DNA from: a virus
Taxonomy: Duplodnaviria; Heunggongvirae; Uroviricota; Caudoviricetes
DNA: 36,248 nucleotides
Reading direction: 5' to 3' (one strand)
IMG/VR virus record: IMGVR_UViG_2778261316_000009
Shown here one piece after another: positions 9,499 through 34,259 of the stretch (positions are counted from its first letter, which is position 1; each line of letters begins with the position of its first letter). The notes under the pieces are model-generated. The model did no database searches. It had not been told where the DNA came from and saw nothing but the letters and a program-made list of their open reading frames with translations. A program made the position numbers and the translations under genes.

Positions 9499-10440
9499 AT
9501 GAGCACTAAATTAACCGGCTATGTATGGGATGGTTGCGCAGCGTCAGGCATGAAATTATCCAGCGTGGCAATTATGGCCCGCCTGGCTGATTTCAGTAAT
9601 GACGAAGGTGTGTGCTGGCCATCAATTGAAACCATTGCCCGCCAGATTGGCGCGGGGATGAGTACCGTCAGAACGGCTATCGCACGGCTGGAAGCAGAAG
9701 GCTGGTTAACGCGTAAGGCGCGTCGCCAGGGTAACCGCAATGCGTCGAATGTTTATCAGCTTAACGTTGCGAAGCTTCAGGCAGCGGCATTTTCTCAACT
9801 GTCAGATTCTGACCCGTCAAAATCTGACGCATCAAAATCTGACCCGTCAAAATTTGATGCGTCGAAATCTGGCAAAAAAGCGGGTTTTCACCCGTCAGAA
9901 TCTGGCGGGGATCCGTCAGTAAAATCAAAACATGATCCGTCAGATAAAAAACCTTCTCGTCCGGACGCTTCGCAACCGGACACGCAGACGGCTGAACAGG
10001 ATTTTTTAACTCGCCATCCTGATGCGGTTGTATTCAGCCCTAAAAAACGCCAGTGGGGGACGCAGGATGATTTGACCTGCGCACAGTGGCTCTGGAAAAA
10101 AATCATCGCCCTGTACGAGCAGGCTGCCGAATGTGACGGCGAGGTGGTTCGTCCCAAAGAACCGAACTGGACAGCCTGGGCAAACGAAATTCGCCTGATG
10201 TGTGTGCAGGATGGTCGTACTCACAAACAAATCTGCGAGATGTACAGCCGCGTCAGCCGCGATCCGTTCTGGTGCCGTAACGTGCTCAGCCCGTCGAAGC
10301 TGCGGGAAAAATGGGATGAGCTTTCCCTGCGCTTATCGCCGTCCGTCAGCACATACACAGAAAAACGTGAAGATCCGTACTTCAAATCCAGTTACGACAA
10401 CGTGGACTACAGCCAGATCCCGGCAGGATTCAGGGGGTGA
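9499..10440 (+). CDS. phage replication initiation protein (O-like) with an internal iteron-bearing linker
   Basis: N-terminal HTH block (SSVAIMARLADFSNDEGVCWPSIETIARQIGAGMSTVRTAIARLEAEGWL) typical of phage replication proteins; central SDPSK/SDASK repeat; Trp-rich C-terminal domain. Confidence 0.6.
   Translation: MSTKLTGYVWDGCAASGMKLSSVAIMARLADFSNDEGVCWPSIETIARQIGAGMSTVRTAIARLEAEGWLTRKARRQGNRNASNVYQLNVAKLQAAAFSQLSDSDPSKSDASKSDPSKFDASKSGKKAGFHPSESGGDPSVKSKHDPSDKKPSRPDASQPDTQTAEQDFLTRHPDAVVFSPKKRQWGTQDDLTCAQWLWKKIIALYEQAAECDGEVVRPKEPNWTAWANEIRLMCVQDGRTHKQICEMYSRVSRDPFWCRNVLSPSKLREKWDELSLRLSPSVSTYTEKREDPYFKSSYDNVDYSQIPAGFRG
9800..9950 (+). repeat. iteron array (candidate origin of replication) inside the replication gene
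   Basis: four tandem 15-bp units TCTGAC(C/G)C(G/A)TCAAAA followed by degenerate CCGTCAGA copies and an A-rich stretch. Confidence 0.5.
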
Positions 10441-10442
10441 TC

Positions 10443-10931
10443 ATGAGTCTTTTGAATGAAGTTCAGAAATTCATTGAAGCCCATCCGGGGTGTACTTCCG
10501 GAGACATTGCGGATGCTTTTGCAGGTTACTCACGGCAGCGCGTTCTGCAGTCAGCAAGCAAGTTACGTCAGAGTGGGCGTGTGGCTCACCGTTGTGAAGG
10601 AGATACACGCAGACATTTCTCGCGCCTGACTGAGAGAGCGCAGGAGCCGGAACCACAACCAGTTCGTGAAACCAGACCTGTGCGCAAGTTCTATGTCGGC
10701 ACTAACGACCCCCGGGTGATTTTGTGCCTGACCCGCCAGGCTGAAGAACTGGAGTCGAGGGGCTTATACCGTCGTGCTGCAACGGTGTGGATGGCGGCAT
10801 TCCGTGAAAGCCACTCCCAGCCAGAACGAAACAATTTTCTGGCGCGTCGTGAACGGTGTTTACGGAAAAGCAGTAAGCGGGCTGCATCAGGTGAAGAGTG
10901 GAATCTCTCAGGGAATTACGTGGGGGCTTAA
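10443..10931 (+). CDS. PerC-like transcriptional regulator
   Basis: AEELESRGLYRRAATVWMAA matches the PerC-family signature as recalled; GGGGG RBS before the ATG. Confidence 0.5.
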   Translation: MSLLNEVQKFIEAHPGCTSGDIADAFAGYSRQRVLQSASKLRQSGRVAHRCEGDTRRHFSRLTERAQEPEPQPVRETRPVRKFYVGTNDPRVILCLTRQAEELESRGLYRRAATVWMAAFRESHSQPERNNFLARRERCLRKSSKRAASGEEWNLSGNYVGA

Positions 10932-28426: not shown

Positions 28427-30262
28427 ATGGCTGAATTTGAGCTTAAGGCGTTGATCACCGGTGTCGACAGGCTTTCTCCCGCGCTGTCGAAAATGCAAAA
28501 GAAAATCCGGGGATTTAAACGCCAGGCGGAAGAAGCGTCACAGGGTGGGCTGGCGCTTGGTGGCGGACTGGCAGCGGGTCTGACGCTTTCCCTGAAATCT
28601 TATGCCGATCAGGAAAACGCCGCCACCGGGCTGAAAGTCGCCATGATGGATGCGAACGGCGAGGTTGGAAAGAGCTTTCAGGACATCAATAAACTGGCTA
28701 TTGGCCTGGGTAACCAGCTACCCGGTACAACGGCTGATTTCCAGAACATGATGCAGATGCTGGTGCGTCAGGGGATCCCGGCAGAAAACATTCTTGGTGG
28801 TGTGGGTAAAGCGACAGCTTATCTTGCGGTACAACTGAAAAAAACACCGGAAGCGGCTGCTGAGTTTGCTGCAAAGATGCAGGATGCTACCGGAACGGCG
28901 TCAGAAGACATGATGGGGCTGTTCGACACTATCCAGAAGGCGTTTTATCTGGGCGTTGACGATACCAACATGTTGTCCTTCTTCACTAAAACCAGTTCTG
29001 TTCTGAAGATGGTGAACAAGGACGGTCTTCAGGCTGCACAGAGCCTTGCCCCCATCAGCGTCATGATGGATCAGATGGGGATGAACGGGGAGTCGGCAGG
29101 TAATGCCCTGCGAAAAGTTATCCAGTCCGGATTAAGCGTTAAGAAAATCAGGGACGTCAATAAAGTCATGGCCCGCCAGAGACTCGGGGTACAGCTCGAT
29201 TTTACTGACGGCAAAGGAAGTTTTGGCGGTCTTGATAACATGTTCAGGCAACTGGCAAAGCTGCGAAAACTGACCGACGTTAAGCGAACAGGTGTACTTA
29301 AGGCAATATTTGGTGATGATGCCGAAACCCTTCAGGTGGTCAATGCACTAATCGATAAAGGAAAGGATGGCTACGATCAGATCCAGCAGAAGATGAATAA
29401 ACAGGCCAGCCTGAATAAACGTGTTCAGGCACAGCTTGGTACGCTGTCCAACCTGTGGGAGGCAATGACGGGGACCGCAACTAACGGCCTTGCGGCTATT
29501 GGCGGCGCATTTTCTGGTGACGCCAAAAATATCACGCAATGGCTGGGGGAGTTGGGGGAAAAATTCACGAAGTTTGCGGATGAAAATCCCCGGGTTATTC
29601 GCGGCGTCGTCGGGCTTGCTGCCGGTCTTGCGATTCTGAAACTGGGATTGATGGGCGTGGGCAGTGCCATCAGTATCGTCAGCAGGATCATGTCGATGAC
29701 GCCGATTGGCATGATTGCGACGGCGATTGCCCTGGCTGCGGGATTAATTATCACTAACTGGGATGTTGTTGGACCTTATTTCAAGAAGCTCTGGGAAACC
29801 ATTGGTCCTTATTTTGAGGCTGGCTGGGAACTTCTGAAGAAGGTTTTTGCCTGGTCGCCGCTGGGGATGGTAATCAATAACTGGGGACCGGTTGTTAAGT
29901 GGTTTCAGGATATGTGGGACAAGCTGAAGCCAATTATTGAGTGGTTTACCGACAGTTCCGGTGACACGGTCGATGCCATTAACTCTGCGCAGTGGGGCGC
30001 GGGTGCTTATGATGCTTATGGGACGGGAATACCGGCGCGGGGATACACACCTTATCCGGCGGTAGATCCGGCTCAGTCAAACAACGCCTCCGATGCTACA
30101 GGCCCGAATCCCTTCATGATTAACAAAGCTTCTGCGCCAAAAGTTGACGGTGAGATCAAGGTCTCTTTTGTGAATTTGCCTCCGGGTATGCGGGTTATGG
30201 AAACGCGATCCAGCGGTTTTGATATAAATCACGATGTTGGCTATACGCATATTGGCAGATGA
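28427..30262 (+). CDS. tail tape measure protein
   Basis: 611 aa, Ala/Gly-rich with TM-like segments, downstream of the chaperone. Confidence 0.85.
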   Translation: MAEFELKALITGVDRLSPALSKMQKKIRGFKRQAEEASQGGLALGGGLAAGLTLSLKSYADQENAATGLKVAMMDANGEVGKSFQDINKLAIGLGNQLPGTTADFQNMMQMLVRQGIPAENILGGVGKATAYLAVQLKKTPEAAAEFAAKMQDATGTASEDMMGLFDTIQKAFYLGVDDTNMLSFFTKTSSVLKMVNKDGLQAAQSLAPISVMMDQMGMNGESAGNALRKVIQSGLSVKKIRDVNKVMARQRLGVQLDFTDGKGSFGGLDNMFRQLAKLRKLTDVKRTGVLKAIFGDDAETLQVVNALIDKGKDGYDQIQQKMNKQASLNKRVQAQLGTLSNLWEAMTGTATNGLAAIGGAFSGDAKNITQWLGELGEKFTKFADENPRVIRGVVGLAAGLAILKLGLMGVGSAISIVSRIMSMTPIGMIATAIALAAGLIITNWDVVGPYFKKLWETIGPYFEAGWELLKKVFAWSPLGMVINNWGPVVKWFQDMWDKLKPIIEWFTDSSGDTVDAINSAQWGAGAYDAYGTGIPARGYTPYPAVDPAQSNNASDATGPNPFMINKASAPKVDGEIKVSFVNLPPGMRVMETRSSGFDINHDVGYTHIGR

Positions 30263-30278
30263 CGGAACCAGATATAAT
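30252..30278 (+). promoter_or_regulatory. candidate promoter for the tail-module moron
   Basis: TTGGCA (30252-30257), 15-bp spacer, consensus TATAAT (30273-30278). Confidence 0.4.
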
Positions 30279-30314
30279 TTGTCTTTAAGTTTGTTATCAA
30301 CTGAAGGGAAATCT

Positions 30315-30692
30315 ATGGGTCTGTTACATGCCATTATAGGTAATGCCGGTGAAATTAATGCATCAGATGCACAACAGGAATTAGGGGCTGTTTTAGGTGA
30401 GGGAGAAAATGTCGAACTTGCCTATAAACTCATTCGTGACCAAATTATTCTGACTAACAGAAGGTTAATTTTTATTGATAAGCAGGGTGTCACAGGGAAA
30501 AAAGTAGAGTATCGTTCGATTCCTTATAAATCTGTGACAAACTTTTCTATTGAAACCGCCGGGCATCTTGATCTTGATGCTGAAATGAAGATATGGATTT
30601 CTGGTATTGCAGAACCGATAAAAAAACAGTTCAGTAAAGGAGCAAACATTTATAAATTGCAGGCTCATCTGGCTCAAAAAATAGCAGGGTAA
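30315..30692 (+). CDS. moron: small bacterial PH-domain-like protein
   Basis: AT-rich 125-aa ORF with AAGGGA RBS and its own terminator, inserted between tape measure and gp43-like genes; LIFIDKQGVTGKKVEYRSIPYKSVTNFSIE resembles bacterial PH domains, a weak call. Confidence 0.55.
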   Translation: MGLLHAIIGNAGEINASDAQQELGAVLGEGENVELAYKLIRDQIILTNRRLIFIDKQGVTGKKVEYRSIPYKSVTNFSIETAGHLDLDAEMKIWISGIAEPIKKQFSKGANIYKLQAHLAQKIAG

Positions 30693-30715
30693 ACCTTACA
30701 TTAATTTATGTCTTT

Positions 30716-30741
30716 CATGCCCACTTCGGTGGGCTTTTTTA
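30716..30741 (+). terminator. rho-independent terminator after the moron
   Basis: GCCCAC-TTCG-GTGGGC followed by T6. Confidence 0.7.
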
Positions 30742-30755
30742 TATCCGGAGTTTAT

Positions 30756-32210
30756 ATGACGTGGAAAGACAGGCTTCAGGACGCGTCATTTCGCGGTGTG
30801 CCGTTTAAGGTTGAAGAAGAAAGTGCGGGAACAGGTCGCCGTGTGGAAACACACGAATATCCGAACCGCGACAAACCCTATACCGAAGATCTGGGAAAAG
30901 TCACTTTCCGCCCGTCCATCACGGCTTATGTGGTGGGCGATGACTGCTTTGACCAGCGCGATCGCCTGATTGACGCGCTGAATAAACCCGGTCCCGGCAC
31001 GCTTGTCCACCCGACTTACGGTGAGCTGAAAGTCTGTGTTGACGGAGAGGTTCGGGTCAGCACATCGAAAAGTGAAGGGCGTATTGTCCGCTTTGACCTG
31101 AAGTTTGTCGAAGCGGGAGAACTCTCTTACCCCACATCAGGTGCGGCGACGGCGCAGACGCTGATGTCATCCTGTTCTGCACTGGATGACTGCATCAGTG
31201 ACAGCTTCAGCGGTTTCAGTATCGATGGTGTGGCGGATTTCGTGCAGAACGACGTTATCGGTAATGCCAGCATAATGCTGGGGTATGTTTCTGATGCGAT
31301 GAAAGTGGTGGATTCTGCCGTATCGGATGCCGCCAGGCTGTTGCAGGGGGATATCTCGGTACTTCTGCCGCCGCCATCGTCAGGCAAAAATTTCGTTGAG
31401 CAGGTGCAGAAAATGTGGCGTACCGGGAAACGCCTTTATGGTAACGCCAGCGACCTGGTCACCATGATCAAAACGCTTTCCGGTGTCAGCCTCGGCAGCG
31501 ATCTGCAACCGCGCGGCGTCTGGAAAACGGACAGTAAAACCACCGCCACGGCGACGCAGCAGCGTAACGTGGTTGCCAGCACCCTTCGTGCGACCGCAAT
31601 CAGCGAAGCGGCGTATGCCGTCACCCGATTGCCTGCGCCAACAACTTCCGCGGTGATGCAGAATGCCGCAGTGGGGCAGTCAACAACTTCCGCGGTGATG
31701 CAGAATGCCGCAGTGGGGCAGTCAACAACTTCCGCGGTGATGCAGAATGCCGCAGTGGGGCAGTCAACAACTTCCGCGGTGATGCAGAATGCCGCAGTGG
31801 GGCAGTCAACAACTTCCGCGCAGAGCACCGGCTGGCCTTCCGTCACGCATCCGGCACTGAACAATGCACCGGCGGTGAAAAACACGGTTGACCTGCCAAC
31901 GTGGGAAGAACTGACTGACATTCGCGACACACTGAATACGGCAATTGATAAGGAGTTGTCCCGTACAACCAGTGATGCGCTGTTTCTGGCGCTGCGCCGG
32001 GTGAAAGCAGATCTGAATGCGGATATCAACACGCGCCTTGAACAGTCTGCTCGGATCATTCAGCGCACGCCGGATGAGGTCTTACCCGCGCTGGTGCTGG
32101 CGGCGACCTGGTTTGATAACGCGGCGCGTGACGCGGACATTATCCGGCGTAATGCCATTACGCATCCCGGCTTTGTGCCGGTGATCCCTCTGAAGGTGCC
32201 AGTGCAATGA
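30756..32210 (+). CDS. Mu N / gp43-like DNA circularisation protein with an internal tandem repeat
   Basis: MTWKDRLQDASFRGVPFKVEEE start typical of the DNA circularisation N-terminal domain; CCGGAG RBS. Confidence 0.75.
   Translation: MTWKDRLQDASFRGVPFKVEEESAGTGRRVETHEYPNRDKPYTEDLGKVTFRPSITAYVVGDDCFDQRDRLIDALNKPGPGTLVHPTYGELKVCVDGEVRVSTSKSEGRIVRFDLKFVEAGELSYPTSGAATAQTLMSSCSALDDCISDSFSGFSIDGVADFVQNDVIGNASIMLGYVSDAMKVVDSAVSDAARLLQGDISVLLPPPSSGKNFVEQVQKMWRTGKRLYGNASDLVTMIKTLSGVSLGSDLQPRGVWKTDSKTTATATQQRNVVASTLRATAISEAAYAVTRLPAPTTSAVMQNAAVGQSTTSAVMQNAAVGQSTTSAVMQNAAVGQSTTSAVMQNAAVGQSTTSAQSTGWPSVTHPALNNAPAVKNTVDLPTWEELTDIRDTLNTAIDKELSRTTSDALFLALRRVKADLNADINTRLEQSARIIQRTPDEVLPALVLAATWFDNAARDADIIRRNAITHPGFVPVIPLKVPVQ
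31641..31820 (+). repeat. perfect 42-bp tandem repeat, four copies plus a partial, in frame (TTSAVMQNAAVGQS)
   Basis: identical units starting at 31641, 31683, 31725 and 31767. Confidence 0.9.
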
Positions 32211-33286
32211 ACGATAACGTCACGCTACGGGTAAATGGCCGGGAGTGGAATGGCTGGACATCGGTGCGCATCGGTGCCGGTATTGAACGGCTGGCGCGGG
32301 ATTTCAGCGTGGAGATCACCCGCCAGTGGCCGGGAGATGAGGGTATCACCACGCTTCAGCCGCGCATTAAAAATGGTTCAAAAGTGGAAGTGCTGATTGG
32401 TGATGAGCTGGTGATCACCGGCTGGGTGGAGGCGACCCCCGTTCGTTACGATGCCCGTTCGGTCAGCACCGGTATTGCCGGACGTAGTCTGACGGCTGAC
32501 CTGATTGACTGTGCAGCCGAACCGACACAGTTTAACGGACGCTCGCTGGTGCAGATTGCGCAGGCGCTTGCTGCGCCTTTCGGCATTGAGGTGGTGAACA
32601 GCGATGCGCCGTCGGGTGTTATTCCGGATGTCCAGCCTGATCACGGTGAAACGGTGATCGAGGTGATCAACAAAATACTCGGTCAGCAGCAGGCGCTGGC
32701 TTATGACGACCCGCACGGCAGGCTGGTGATTGGTGGTATTGGCTCAACGCGGGCACATACCGCGCTGGTACTTGGGGAAAACATCCTTTCCTGTGATACG
32801 GAGAAGAGTATCCGGGAGCGGTTTTCAGTTTACCAGGTGGCGGGGCAGCGTGCCGGAAACGACGATGATTTCGGTGAGGCCACCACCACCGCGCTGCGGG
32901 CCCGCACAGAGGACGCATTTATTGCCCGTTACCGTCCGATGTATATCAGGCAGACAGGGCAGGCTACGGGGGCAGGCTGTATTGCCCGTGCGGACTTTGA
33001 AGCCCGACAACGGGCGGCGCGGACGGATGAAACCACCTATGTGGTGCAGGGCTGGCGACAGGGTAACGGTACGCTGTGGCAGCCCAACCAGCGGGTGATT
33101 GTCTTTGATCCGGTCTGTGGTTTCGACAATACCGAACTGCTTGTTTCGGAAGTCACGTTTACTCAGGACCAGAACGGCACCCTGACGGAAATCCGTGTCG
33201 GCCCACCTGATGCTTATCTGCCTGAACCCGAAGCCCCCGGCGCGCGGAAAAAGAAAAAAGCCAGAGTACAGGAGGAGCCGTTCTGA
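32207..33286 (+). CDS. Mu P / gp44-like baseplate hub protein
   Basis: 359 aa, ATGA coupling, position after the gp43-like gene. Confidence 0.7.
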   Translation: MNDNVTLRVNGREWNGWTSVRIGAGIERLARDFSVEITRQWPGDEGITTLQPRIKNGSKVEVLIGDELVITGWVEATPVRYDARSVSTGIAGRSLTADLIDCAAEPTQFNGRSLVQIAQALAAPFGIEVVNSDAPSGVIPDVQPDHGETVIEVINKILGQQQALAYDDPHGRLVIGGIGSTRAHTALVLGENILSCDTEKSIRERFSVYQVAGQRAGNDDDFGEATTTALRARTEDAFIARYRPMYIRQTGQATGAGCIARADFEARQRAARTDETTYVVQGWRQGNGTLWQPNQRVIVFDPVCGFDNTELLVSEVTFTQDQNGTLTEIRVGPPDAYLPEPEAPGARKKKKARVQEEPF

Positions 33287-33834
33287 TGAGGACGATTGAA
33301 GCCATGCAGCGACAACTCCTCGGCCTGATTGGGCGGGCCGTGGTGAAAAGCATCAGTGCCGCCACGAAATGTCAGACCGTGGATGTGTCCCTGATTGCCG
33401 GTGAACCCAAAGCCGGGGTTGAACATCTTGAACCCTACGGTTTTACCGCAAGGGCAAACAGCGGTGCGGAAGCGGTGGTGTTGTTTCCGGATGGCGACCG
33501 TTCTCATGCGGTGGTTGTTACGGTGTCGGACCGTCGCTACCGCCTGAAAGGGCTGCAAACGGGGGAGGTGGCTGTCTATGACGATCAGGGGCAGTCCGTG
33601 ACGCTGACCAGGGAGGGGATCGTGGTGGACGGTGCAGGTAAAACGATCACGTTTCGCAATGCGCCCAGAGCACGCTTTGAAATGGACCTGGAAGTGACAG
33701 GACAGGTGAAAGACCTGTGCGACTCCGGCGGCACCACCATGTCAGCGATGCGGCTTGCCTATAACGGGCATCGTCACAGAGAGAACGGTCAGGGAAGTAA
33801 CACCGACAAACCTGATAAAGCGATGGAGGCATGA
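33286..33834 (+). CDS. baseplate assembly protein V / spike (Mu gp45-like)
   Basis: LEPYGFTARANSGAEAVVLFPDGDRSHAVVVTVSDRRYR matches the phage baseplate V family pattern. Confidence 0.75.
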   Translation: MRTIEAMQRQLLGLIGRAVVKSISAATKCQTVDVSLIAGEPKAGVEHLEPYGFTARANSGAEAVVLFPDGDRSHAVVVTVSDRRYRLKGLQTGEVAVYDDQGQSVTLTREGIVVDGAGKTITFRNAPRARFEMDLEVTGQVKDLCDSGGTTMSAMRLAYNGHRHRENGQGSNTDKPDKAMEA

Positions 33835-34259
33835 TGGAACTGTGGCTGACGGTGAACGGTAAACGCACCTGCGCCAGCGCACCGCTGGATCCGCTGCCCC
33901 GCGCCGTGGTGATTTCCCTGTTCACCTGGCGGCGGGCGGAGCCTGATGACAACGCCGACGTCCCGATGGGATGGTGGGGGGATACCTGGCCTGCGGTACA
34001 GAATGACCGTTACGGCTCCCGACTGTGGCTGCTTCAGCGCAGCAAACTGACCAATCAGCTGGTGCAGACGGTAAGGGGGTATATCCGCGAATGCCTGCAA
34101 TGGATGATTGATGACGGCGTGGTGTCCCGTATTGATCTGGATATCCGCCGCACCGGGATTAATGAGCTTGGTAACAGTATCACTCTCTGGCGTCGTGACG
34201 GACCGGTAATGATTTCTTTTGATGATCTGTGGAGTGCGATAACGCATGGCGGACAGTGA
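33831..34259 (+). CDS. Mu gp46-like baseplate protein
   Basis: 142 aa, position and ATGA coupling. Confidence 0.65.
   Translation: MMELWLTVNGKRTCASAPLDPLPRAVVISLFTWRRAEPDDNADVPMGWWGDTWPAVQNDRYGSRLWLLQRSKLTNQLVQTVRGYIRECLQWMIDDGVVSRIDLDIRRTGINELGNSITLWRRDGPVMISFDDLWSAITHGGQ

Follow-up and report, generated by a model that had tools for sequence, protein, structure and literature searches.

A homologue gene of the Mu tail-tube initiator gp43 carries a perfect 42-bp tandem repeat, and the number of repeat copies ranges from 1.33 to 6.33 on an otherwise identical gene. Most probably, the array is a coding minisatellite that arose by replication slippage or unequal exchange after a 14-bp echo of the repeat unit had become perfect, and it is tolerated and probably near-neutral. 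The DNA analyzed is a single stretch of 36,248 nt, called the window here.

The repeat array and its host gene

Tandem Repeats Finder was run on the complete window and reported 4.33 head-to-tail copies of a 42-bp unit at 31639..31820 (+), with 100% identity, no indels and a score of 364. Direct reading of the sequence gave four identical 42-mers (31639-31680, 31681-31722, 31723-31764 and 31765-31806, all +) followed by a 14-nt partial copy (31807-31820, +). Thus, both approaches agree on the perfect repeat of four copies and a partial described in the initial annotation; the start given there, 31641, denotes the identical array in codon phase. Each unit (ACAACTTCCGCGGTGATGCAGAATGCCGCAGTGGGGCAGTCA) is composed of the 14-mer CAACAACTTCCGCG and then the 28-mer core GTGATGCAGAATGCCGCAGTGGGGCAGT, and is translated in frame to TTSAVMQNAAVGQS. 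The borders of the array are sharp. On the left side the preceding base is C instead of the T of the unit, and past the last 14-mer the sequence reads CAGAGC in place of GTGATG. At an offset of 42 an exact self-match of 140 nt was found, and a match of this length within 36 kb cannot have originated by chance. The locus therefore has the structure of a coding VNTR, with at least two head-to-tail copies, a unit of at least 10 bp and high identity.

The longest ORF containing the array spans 30708..32210 (+). In near-identical relatives the PGAP start corresponds to position 30756, resulting in a gene at 30756..32210 (+) and a protein of 484 aa, which exactly matches P0001/WP_123055535.1. The ORF list, Pfam, PGAP, PDB and Foldseek were used to assign this gene as the Mu gp43/N homologue (tail-tube initiator or 'DNA circularization protein'). 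The domain DNA_circ_N (PF07157) was detected with E=3.3e-34 and 117.7 bits (gathering cut-off 21), covering profile positions 2-88 of 88. The best PDB sequence match was 9KI1, 'DNA circularization protein N' (E=6e-13). Chains of 9KI1 were also the top Foldseek matches (E=1.9e-19 and 3.4e-19, ~500 columns), followed by the tube initiators of Milano and 7-7-1 (8FQC_U1, 8e-18; 9RKU_A1, 5e-16). TM scores to solved gp43-type initiators were only 0.41-0.50, because the domain orientation differs in the isolated model.

The gene order is PhageMin_Tail, a PH-domain cargo gene, gp43, gp44, gp45, gp46, Baseplate_J (gp47) and gp48, as in Mu. According to the ORF list and Pfam, the upstream tape-measure gene (PhageMin_Tail) lies at 28427..30262 (+) and the downstream baseplate hub gene (Mu gp44/P homologue) at 32207..33286 (+). 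The start of the latter overlaps the gp43 stop codon. The tape-measure gene has a 120-bp copy-number polymorphism of its own, and tape measures of 611 aa, 651 aa and longer occur. Alternative cargo genes between tape measure and gp43 gave no match in Pfam scans, and PADLOC scans of two of these and of the PH-domain gene of the window gave no match either. With a Pfam domain above threshold, a gp43-type fold and a position between tape measure and gp44, the protein belongs to the tube-initiator family, and the label 'gp43-like tail gene' was correct. The gene is carried by a prophage of the SfV-like type with a Mu-type tail, found in E. coli and related Enterobacteriaceae. This element is mosaic, combining a tail like that of Mu with an early region of lambdoid type.

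A first AlphaFold run with 41 close homologues had a mean pLDDT of 44 and was discarded as unusable. The AF2 model used here was based on a 120-sequence alignment including distant representatives (mean pLDDT 87, pTM 0.72). It predicts an N-terminal tube-like beta domain including DNA_circ_N at aa 1-119 (30756..31112, +; pLDDT 91-98), in line with Pfam and hhalign. The hhalign alignment of the family with Mu gp43 was confident for residues 25-133 only (probability 98%). A helix-rich region at aa 132-289 (31149..31622, +) ends in a long helix, 261-289, and was assigned from the model and the domain description in PMC11915804. The C-terminal part (31902..32207, +) comprises helices at aa 383-430 and a putative LysM-like module at aa 433-483, with a beta-alpha-alpha-beta arrangement in the model and no Pfam LysM match at E<=0.001. 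A conserved motif, RRN.I.HPGFVP, is common to the window protein and Mu gp43.

Copy-number variation and origin of the array

Alleles with 1.33, 2.33, 3.33, 4.33 (window), 5.33 and 6.33 copies were found in public genomes. Database entries exist for each of the corresponding proteins (442, 456, 470, 484, 498 and 512 aa), and each translates from its locus. The 1.33-, 5.33- and 6.33-copy alleles were analyzed at the DNA level and contained one distinct unit; outside the array the gene had 0/883 and 0/390 mismatches. The 6.33-copy allele is present in GCA_022977545.1 and the 1.33-copy allele in GCA_964055295.1. Similarly, 730V1 (3.33 copies) and HH107 (2.33 copies) had no mismatches to the window over 859 and 390 bp. 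In all checked alleles the 1,273 bp of the gene beyond the array were identical to the window. Degenerate unit copies were not found in any allele examined, which fits a young or fast-turnover array. Copy number hence varies on near-identical alleles in exact 42-bp steps that keep the frame (42 = 14 x 3), as is typical of a coding VNTR. The recent expansion and the copy-number-variable locus that had been proposed were both borne out across related prophages, where the copy number differs and is not invariant.

Among complete E. coli genomes carrying the gene, two or more units were present in 5 of 1,097 (4.33, 3.33, 2.33, 2.33 and 2.33 copies), and the unit-to-unit junction was absent from the remaining ~1,090. 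IMG/VR contributed one 4.33-, one 3.33- and four 2.33-copy alleles, and a gut metagenome one with 2.33 copies. Exact look-up of the proteins with one to six units gave 145, 238, 96, 2, 3 and 1 contigs, respectively; these are mostly draft assemblies, and such counts are unreliable as frequencies because short-read assemblers may collapse or break long arrays. The allele frequency in these counts falls sharply above three units. This could result from selection against long loops, or from short-read assemblers collapsing or breaking arrays longer than the k-mer. In the phage collection, the match span fitted 1.33 copies in 12 of 12 records, and none of these was an induced or virion-derived phage carrying more than 1.33 copies. 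The expanded array was also found in other 5' backgrounds. CFS3292 has 16 and L018 has 21 mismatches per 859 bp upstream of the array, and 0-2 per 390 bp downstream. Therefore, the array persists through recombination.

The array length in the window or in its relatives might also stem from collapse or expansion during assembly, a worry already raised in the initial annotation. Arrays of 140-266 bp are longer than common de Bruijn k-mers. It can be reasoned that with a k of 56 or less all k-mers of the 1.33-copy allele are also contained in the longer alleles, making collapse possible. In addition, most allele counts come from drafts, and the window itself is likely located on a 45-kb draft contig. 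However, the 4.33-copy allele was recovered from four or more independent assemblies, one of them closed: besides the likely source contig of the window, the identical array was found in the closed CFS3292 chromosome, in an IMG/VR contig and in a second NCBI protein record (P0002). Copy numbers of 2.33, 3.33 and 4.33 are seen in closed genomes of different national origin, the perfect 1.33-copy allele is located on a 4.98-Mb contig, and length differences between alleles are always whole multiples of 42 bp, with sharp borders. An artefact is very unlikely on these grounds, and the worry is largely answered.

In most relatives a single 42-bp unit is followed by a 14-bp sequence that imperfectly echoes the first 14 nt of the unit. 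This echo was found in an SfV type (...CAGG CAACAACACCTGCG) and in an intermediate type (...CAGT CAACAACACCCGCG). The sequences of SfV, SfIV, SKA5 and 720R4 were read directly, and the echo is imperfect in all four. One haplotype has the perfect echo, giving two exact 14-bp direct repeats around the 28-bp core. Variation of the 42-bp unit (1.33-6.33 copies) is restricted to this perfect-echo haplotype, and all units are identical. The 1.33-copy allele with perfect 14-mers was not detected in complete E. coli genomes (best match with 2 mismatches); exact protein look-up recovered it from other assemblies.

We propose that the array was seeded when the 14-bp direct repeat flanking the 28-bp core turned perfect. 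This last step (AC to TT) is not simple slippage and needs a separate mutation or conversion. The first duplication would have occurred by slipped-strand misalignment or unequal exchange between the two 14-mers, and later gains and losses by misalignment between whole 42-bp units. In E. coli, misalignment at a repeat length of 42 bp does not need RecA. Either slippage or unequal exchange mediated by RecA or a phage recombinase may have acted. Copy-number change would outpace point mutation. Each step would add or remove TTSAVMQNAAVGQS in frame, because the unit has 14 codons, and would do so within a loop predicted to be disordered. The six loop copies per baseplate would get longer, and the protein would still assemble. 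We infer that the length variation is neutral or nearly so, and would represent mutational noise in a floppy loop rather than regulation.

Possible consequences of array length

The repeat (aa 296-355) is located in a hypervariable, predicted-disordered loop at aa 290-382 (31623..31901, +), delimited by the AF2 model, alignments and composition. In the model, aa 312-354 are the only long stretch with pLDDT <50, and aa 290-382 contain no strand; helices there do not exceed 6 residues (one short helix lies at 300-305). Residues S/T/A/G/Q/N/P make up 75% of the loop, and charged as well as aromatic residues are missing from the repeat unit. Alignment A1 places the array between the invariant P293 and G359/W360, without any conserved column. 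The 120-member family alignment gave a linker of 93 aa in the window protein vs 7-68 aa in the others, with a gap fraction of 0.7-0.99 and a conservation of 0.16 or less in the loop. The loop is the only non-conserved, indel-rich, low-confidence segment of the protein. Thus the statement that the repeat lengthens a linker holds insofar as a flexible, non-conserved segment of a baseplate/DNA-circularization protein gets longer. However, this segment is not an inter-domain linker. The true inter-domain linker is located at about aa 120-131, and the repeat segment forms a loop inside the helix-rich C-terminal region.

The cryo-EM model of Mu gp43 covers residues 23-278, 282-363 and 383-494 only (PMC11915804 Table S2), and 19 residues of its S/T-rich linker (364-382) are without model (PMC11915804). 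Residues 337-383 of Mu gp43 consist of 81% S/T/A/G/Q/N/P vs 75% in the window loop. By position and composition, the window loop appears to correspond to this S/T-rich linker. The mapping was based on a low-confidence part of the phmmer alignment together with position and composition, because the profile-profile alignment (hhalign) was confident in the N-domain only.

An influence of the repeat on tail geometry, as suggested before, found no support in the data analyzed. In Mu, the tape measure gp42 sets the tail length, and gp43 is the tube initiator (PMC11915804). By homology, the role of the tail-length ruler would belong to the neighbouring gene (28427-30262), and the gp43 homologue would form one ring at the tube base.

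Adaptive tuning of loop length was considered as well. Here, the number of 14-aa modules would set the reach of the gp43 loop, as a mutational 'dial' kept by selection. Mu gp43 is multifunctional, with roles in tube initiation, wedge-hub stabilization and DNA circularization (PMC11915804), and in-frame repeat shuffling modulates function in another injection machine, H. pylori CagY (PMC2194252). Six alleles coexist in nature, and the expanded array was carried into different 5' gene backgrounds. Yet no other part is less conserved in the family or varies more in length than the loop, and the unit offers neither charge nor aromatic side chains. Independent tandem expansions of the loop were not found in 120 close and 117 distant homologues; therefore, expansion is not a recurrent family trait. 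The expansion is rare and limited to a single young haplotype, and since all copies are identical there is no sign of long-term maintenance. We consider such tuning unlikely, and equally so its candidate effects on wedge contacts, contraction triggering, access of LysM to peptidoglycan, DNA-end binding by the injected protein or sensing by host defence. Still somewhat less likely is the full scheme, in which the module number would be a selectable 'dial' acting through six loops per baseplate directed toward wedges or envelope, with slippage supplying a standing pool of variants. If true, the length of the loops might influence how contraction is triggered, how far LysM extends to peptidoglycan, or whether the injected gp43 is recognized by a host defence or superinfection-exclusion factor.

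Perfect tandem repeats are a classic substrate of phase variation, and a slippage-prone switch had been suggested for this array. A contingency locus could act on gp43 itself or on gp44, given the overlap of the two genes. However, with a unit of 42 nt, whole-unit slippage cannot change the frame, and the six alleles with one to six units are all full-length, intact ORFs and annotated as intact by PGAP. A sigma-70-like promoter was not found in 31300-32300, and terminator-like matches were located only outside the array. Since the unit is in frame, the alleles are intact and a promoter-like site is missing, slippage cannot switch the gene on or off. Neither a frame shift nor a change in promoter spacing, the marks of a phase-variable locus, was observed. 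The switch is refuted for whole-unit changes, and phase variation of gp43 or gp44 is the least credible of the explanations weighed here.

Alternatively, the array might be a DNA-level element whose overlap with gp43 is incidental, for example an antisense gene, a recombination site or iterons bound by a protein. Folding of the array strand is somewhat more stable than that of shuffled sequences (z=-2.9); this modest hairpin potential is explained by the palindrome CCGCGG within the repeat. Antisense ORFs at 31436-32059 and 31621-31812 span the array. The first of these has no match to a Pfam family and was treated as spurious. No Rfam family or tRNA was found in the array, which is also free of promoters and terminators, and ~99.5% of relatives and all sampled records of the phage collection lack the repeat. 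A function of this kind is highly improbable.

A tolerated coding minisatellite thus remains the preferred explanation. The locus provides a clean natural example of minisatellite birth in a coding region, in which a 14-bp echo was perfected and the 42-bp unit went from one to six copies with the rest of the gene unchanged. It maps the tolerance for large insertions in a baseplate protein to one part, and the loop (aa 290-382) is a candidate permissive site for tags or display peptides in Mu-type baseplates. The array may serve as a fast-evolving typing marker for strains with this prophage haplotype. It is also a warning that the length of this gene may be misreported by short-read assemblies. 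Greater importance would follow only if loop length affects infection or evasion of defence.

Comparison with known systems

The window protein resembles Mu gp43 (N protein; PDB 9KI1; PMC11915804) in its N-terminal Pfam domain, its gene position between tape measure and gp44 hub, and its succession of beta domain, helix-rich region and putative C-terminal LysM-like module, with an S/T-rich linker before the last helices. In contrast, identity outside the N-domain is only ~20%, and the Mu linker is non-repetitive. The Mu N protein is injected with the DNA, binds the DNA ends and circularizes them (PMC11915804). Unlike Mu, the host phage is an SfV-like mosaic and not a transposable phage, and therefore circularization of DNA ends may not apply.

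Orthologues with 97-98% identity, annotated as 'tail/DNA circulation protein' genes, lie in the corresponding tail module of SfV (orf15), SfII, SfIV, SfI, SKA5 and vB_EcoM-720R4. In contrast to the window, these SfV-group genes have one unit and an imperfect 14-mer (G...ACACCTGCG or ACACCCGCG). Therefore, they lack a perfect direct repeat, and no expansion is seen there. No relevant publication on this repeat, or on repeats in DNA-circularization proteins, was retrieved in a literature search.

The cagY gene of H. pylori (type IV secretion; PMC2194252) is similar in that recombination between direct repeats is always in frame and affects a structural part of an injection machine. In cagY there are many repeats, which have diverged from each other, and rearrangement of these has been shown to affect function. 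The window units, in contrast, are few, identical and without known phenotype, and lie in a loop predicted to be disordered. Like the window locus, STTR6 on Gifsy-1 of Salmonella Typhimurium (PMC3901673) is a prophage tandem repeat whose copy number varies among close strains. STTR6 has a short unit and a long-established range of alleles for MLVA, whereas the window locus is built from a 42-bp in-frame unit in a structural gene and belongs to one haplotype only.

An in-frame repeat in a tube-initiator gene

At window 31639-31820, Tandem Repeats Finder located a repeat of period 42 and 4.3 copies, scored at 364, with 100% matches and free of indels. On direct reading, CAACAACTTCCGCGGTGATGCAGAATGCCGCAGTGGGGCAGT occurs four times in identical form before the array ends with CAACAACTTCCGCG. 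The array lies in frame within a plus-strand ORF from the ORF list (30708-32210), and translation of the unit in codon phase from 31641 yields TTSAVMQNAAVGQS. The perfect 42-bp repeat in a gp43-like gene and its peptide, both described in the initial annotation, were thus confirmed in full. In the NCBI annotation of near-identical relatives the gene starts at the position equal to window 30756, which results in a protein of 484 aa.

The ORF matches the Pfam domain DNA_circ_N (PF07157, E=3.3e-34). It is flanked on one side by the tape-measure gene (28427-30262; Pfam PhageMin_Tail) and on the other by homologues of Mu gp44, gp45, gp46, gp47 (Baseplate_J) and gp48. The top sequence match in the PDB was the phage Mu 'DNA circularization protein N' (9KI1, E=6e-13), a Mu baseplate entry with six chains (PMC11915804). 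Mu gp43 is a hexameric tail-tube initiator: a tube-like beta-barrel domain forms its N-terminus, and a helix-rich region with a LysM module is packed between the wedges (PMC11915804). AlphaFold gave no usable model from 41 close homologues (mean pLDDT 44). With 120 sequences, distant representatives among them, it gave a confident one (mean pLDDT 87, pTM 0.72). For this model, Foldseek ranked the gp43 chains of 9KI1 first (E=2e-19) and the tube initiators of phages Milano and 7-7-1 next. Domain content, predicted fold and synteny all place the window protein in the Mu gp43/N tube-initiator family. Where a LysM module would be expected, the model has a beta-alpha-alpha-beta arrangement at aa 433-483, the motif RRN.I.HPGFVP is common to this protein and Mu gp43, and Pfam gave no LysM match at E<=0.001.

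The whole window is an SfV-like prophage that combines a lambdoid early region with a Mu-type tail. Its first 25 kb share 98.3% identity over 81% with phage record vB_EcoM-720R4. The draft E. coli contig NMEQ01000039.1 (GCA_002542525.1) equals the window in all segments compared (28801-30230, 30780-31638 and 31821-34200) and encodes an identical 484-aa gp43; the window probably derives from it.

Further features were observed in the early region and at the window's edge. Another tandem repeat, TCTGACCCGTCAAAA x 4.3 with a period of 15 (or 30) and 81-88% identity, is located at 9808-9871 within ORF 9499-10440, which encodes an HTH_36 domain and occupies the lambdoid replication-initiator position. 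The lambda O gene carries origin iterons inside the initiator gene, and the repeat looks like a comparable set of iterons embedded in an initiator gene. Directly downstream, ORF 10437-10931 encodes a PerC transcriptional-activator domain (PF06069, E=4.8e-9). Prophage regulators of the PerC/Pch type can affect host virulence genes. An ORF listed from the window's first base (1-762) matches DUF2713 (E=4e-144).

Copy number and origin of the array

The gp43 gene was present in 1,097 of 5,426 complete E. coli genomes. A 70-nt junction query, which can match in full only where two whole units adjoin, matched five of these 1,097. Counting units in the fetched DNA gave 4.33 copies (four whole units and the 14-bp partial) in CFS3292, 3.33 in 730V1 and 2.33 each in 873.10, HH107 and 1332KP. 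All twelve records from the phage collection (SfV, SfII, SfIV, SfI, SKA5, 720R4, 689R6 and VIT_AJPSC, some as duplicate accessions) had match spans 126-127 bp shorter than the window, corresponding to 1.33 copies; four of the twelve were read directly at the repeat. This collection contains no phage, induced or obtained from virions, that exceeds 1.33 copies. IMG/VR contigs carried alleles with 4.33 (n=1), 3.33 (n=1) and 2.33 copies (n=4), and a human-gut metagenome contig added one further 2.33-copy allele.

Proteins with one to six units were built on the window's background, and each was looked up by exact sequence. All six have real entries, with counts that are unreliable as frequencies because arrays longer than the assembler k-mer may collapse in draft assemblies: 145 contigs for one unit (442 aa), 238 for two (456 aa, Salmonella entries included), 96 for three (470 aa), 2 for four (484 aa), 3 for five (498 aa) and 1 for six (512 aa). 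The arrays of the 1-, 5- and 6-unit alleles measured 56, 224 and 266 bp and contained one distinct unit, and the remaining gene had 0/883 and 0/390 mismatches to the window. Likewise, the closed genomes 730V1 (3.33) and HH107 (2.33) showed no mismatches over 859 + 390 bp. Since alleles of 1.33 to 6.33 copies occur with no mismatch elsewhere in the gene, copy number on this haplotype has changed more quickly than point substitutions have accumulated. The length variation is real, because closed genomes differ and a 4.98-Mb contig carries the 1.33-copy allele. The recent expansion and the copy-number-variable locus proposed in the initial annotation were both borne out, and the comparison across relatives that it called for yielded several lengths, so the locus is not invariant.

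Downstream of the 28-nt core, common alleles carry an echo that reproduces the 14-mer upstream of the core imperfectly. This echo reads ...CAGG CAACAACACCTGCG in SfV, SKA5 and 720R4, ...CAGG CAACAACACCCGCG in SfIV and ...CAGG CAACAACAGCTGCG in 30EVA2. A rarer intermediate (FDAARGOS_1262, LP50-1, E89) has ...CAGT CAACAACACCCGCG, 2 nt short of perfect. The echo is perfect in the founder haplotype (...CAGT CAACAACTTCCGCG), which therefore contains two exact 14-bp direct repeats with 28 bp between them. The perfect 14-mer and the T were present in every allele with at least two units that was read. The 3' gene flank of these alleles had 0-2 mismatches per 390 bp against the window, and the 5' flanks (window 30780-31638) diverged in CFS3292 (16 mismatches per 859 bp) and in another relative's locus, L018 (21 mismatches over the same length). 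We read the expanded array as having arisen once and then spread by recombination to other prophage backgrounds. The divergent 5' halves and near-identical 3' halves in CFS3292 and L018 suggest breakpoints at, or slightly upstream of, the array.

The first duplication would have arisen by misalignment between the two 14-mers, and later copy changes by misalignment between whole 42-bp units. RecA-independent slipped misalignment of short tandem repeats is well established in E. coli. Simple slippage does not yield the AC-to-TT change by which the echo became perfect; templated conversion, with the upstream copy as donor, may have produced it. The alleles examined contained no degenerate units, so the arrays are either young or subject to rapid turnover.

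A variable loop in the C-terminal region

Among 41 aligned enterobacterial homologues, the only block without any conserved column is the one that holds the array, between the invariant P293 and G359/W360. The array block has 13-14 residues in other genera and 23 in the common E. coli alleles. In the 120-sequence family alignment, the segment from the helix end at about aa 289 to the helix start at aa 383 has a gap fraction of 0.7-0.99, and the window's 93 residues make it the longest (others 7-68). The confident AlphaFold model has helices at 261-289 and 383-403 and, between them, a loop (aa 290-382) without secondary structure except for a six-residue helix (300-305); the sole long low-confidence stretch is aa 312-354. 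S/T/A/G/Q/N/P account for 75% of the loop, and the repeat unit contains no charged residue. The Mu gp43 counterpart is a 47-residue linker (aa 337-383, 81% of the same residues) directly preceding the helix that aligns with LPTWEELTDIRDT, a mapping based on position, composition and weak alignment, with hhalign confident for the N-domain only. Residues 364-382 of Mu gp43 are missing from the cryo-EM model (PMC11915804). According to alignment and model, the length added by the repeat would fall in a floppy loop inside the C-terminal region, six per baseplate. The initial annotation's lengthened linker thus holds for this loop and not for the inter-domain linker at about aa 120-131.

Role of the repeat and comparison with known systems

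The best-supported reading is that repeat instability has produced a length polymorphism that is tolerated and neutral or nearly so. A slippage switch, as suggested initially, was ruled out because a change by whole 14-codon units keeps the frame, each of the six alleles has an intact ORF, and searches in and around the array gave no promoter-like site, no Rfam family and no tRNA. Tuning of tail geometry by the gp43 repeat, also suggested there, is unsupported: tail length is determined by the tape measure, and gp43 forms a single ring at the base of the tube (PMC11915804). That repeat number adaptively tunes the reach of the loop is improbable, as the loop is extremely variable throughout the family, 237 homologues include no independent expansion, and expansion of the array is rare and young.

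The tape-measure gene itself holds a 120-bp (40-aa) segment, SGDTVDAINSAQWGAGAYDAYGTGIP.RGYTPYPA..., at window 29957-30076. The window, SfV and several others have this segment once and a tape measure of 611 aa. Copies were judged by occurrences of a diagnostic 29-mer, found twice in 730V1, 873.10, HH107, 1332KP and the 1.33-, 5.33- and 6.33-copy loci, and three times in one IMG/VR contig (L017). Among the relatives listed for this segment (loci L002-L005, L016, L017, L023-L026 and L028), a second tandem copy was confirmed in L023 by alignment. The 29-mer counts suggest two copies in many relatives, in agreement with 651-aa tape measures. The copies are imperfect, and thus the duplication predates the gp43 repeat. 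Because tape-measure length sets tail length, this polymorphism, and not the gp43 loop, would most likely alter tail geometry.

Between tape measure and gp43 lies a cargo ('moron') slot (30263-30755). In the window, 730V1 and others it carries a bacterial PH-domain gene (bPH_1, E=6e-48; 30315-30692, or 30234-30692 from the first ATG). The slot is empty in SfV, FDAARGOS_1262 and E89, and unrelated hypothetical genes occupy it in CFS3292 and 720R4 (162 aa), SKA5 (170 aa) and LP50-1 (164 aa). Pfam gave no match for the cargo genes of CFS3292, SKA5 and LP50-1, nor did PADLOC for those of CFS3292 and SKA5 or the window's PH-domain gene. The first ~20 residues of gp43 exchange along with the cargo (MTWKDRL..., MDFSHISSYLSSDSRSGWREKL... 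or MDLSSFPTRPSLLSSSSGWRDRL...).

A literature search found no report of this gp43 repeat locus. The array is an ordinary coding VNTR. It resembles STTR6 on Gifsy-1, a precedent for repeat-number variation borne by a prophage (PMC3901673). Its in-frame copy changes have a precedent in cagY, which encodes a secretion-machine component and undergoes in-frame repeat rearrangement (PMC2194252).
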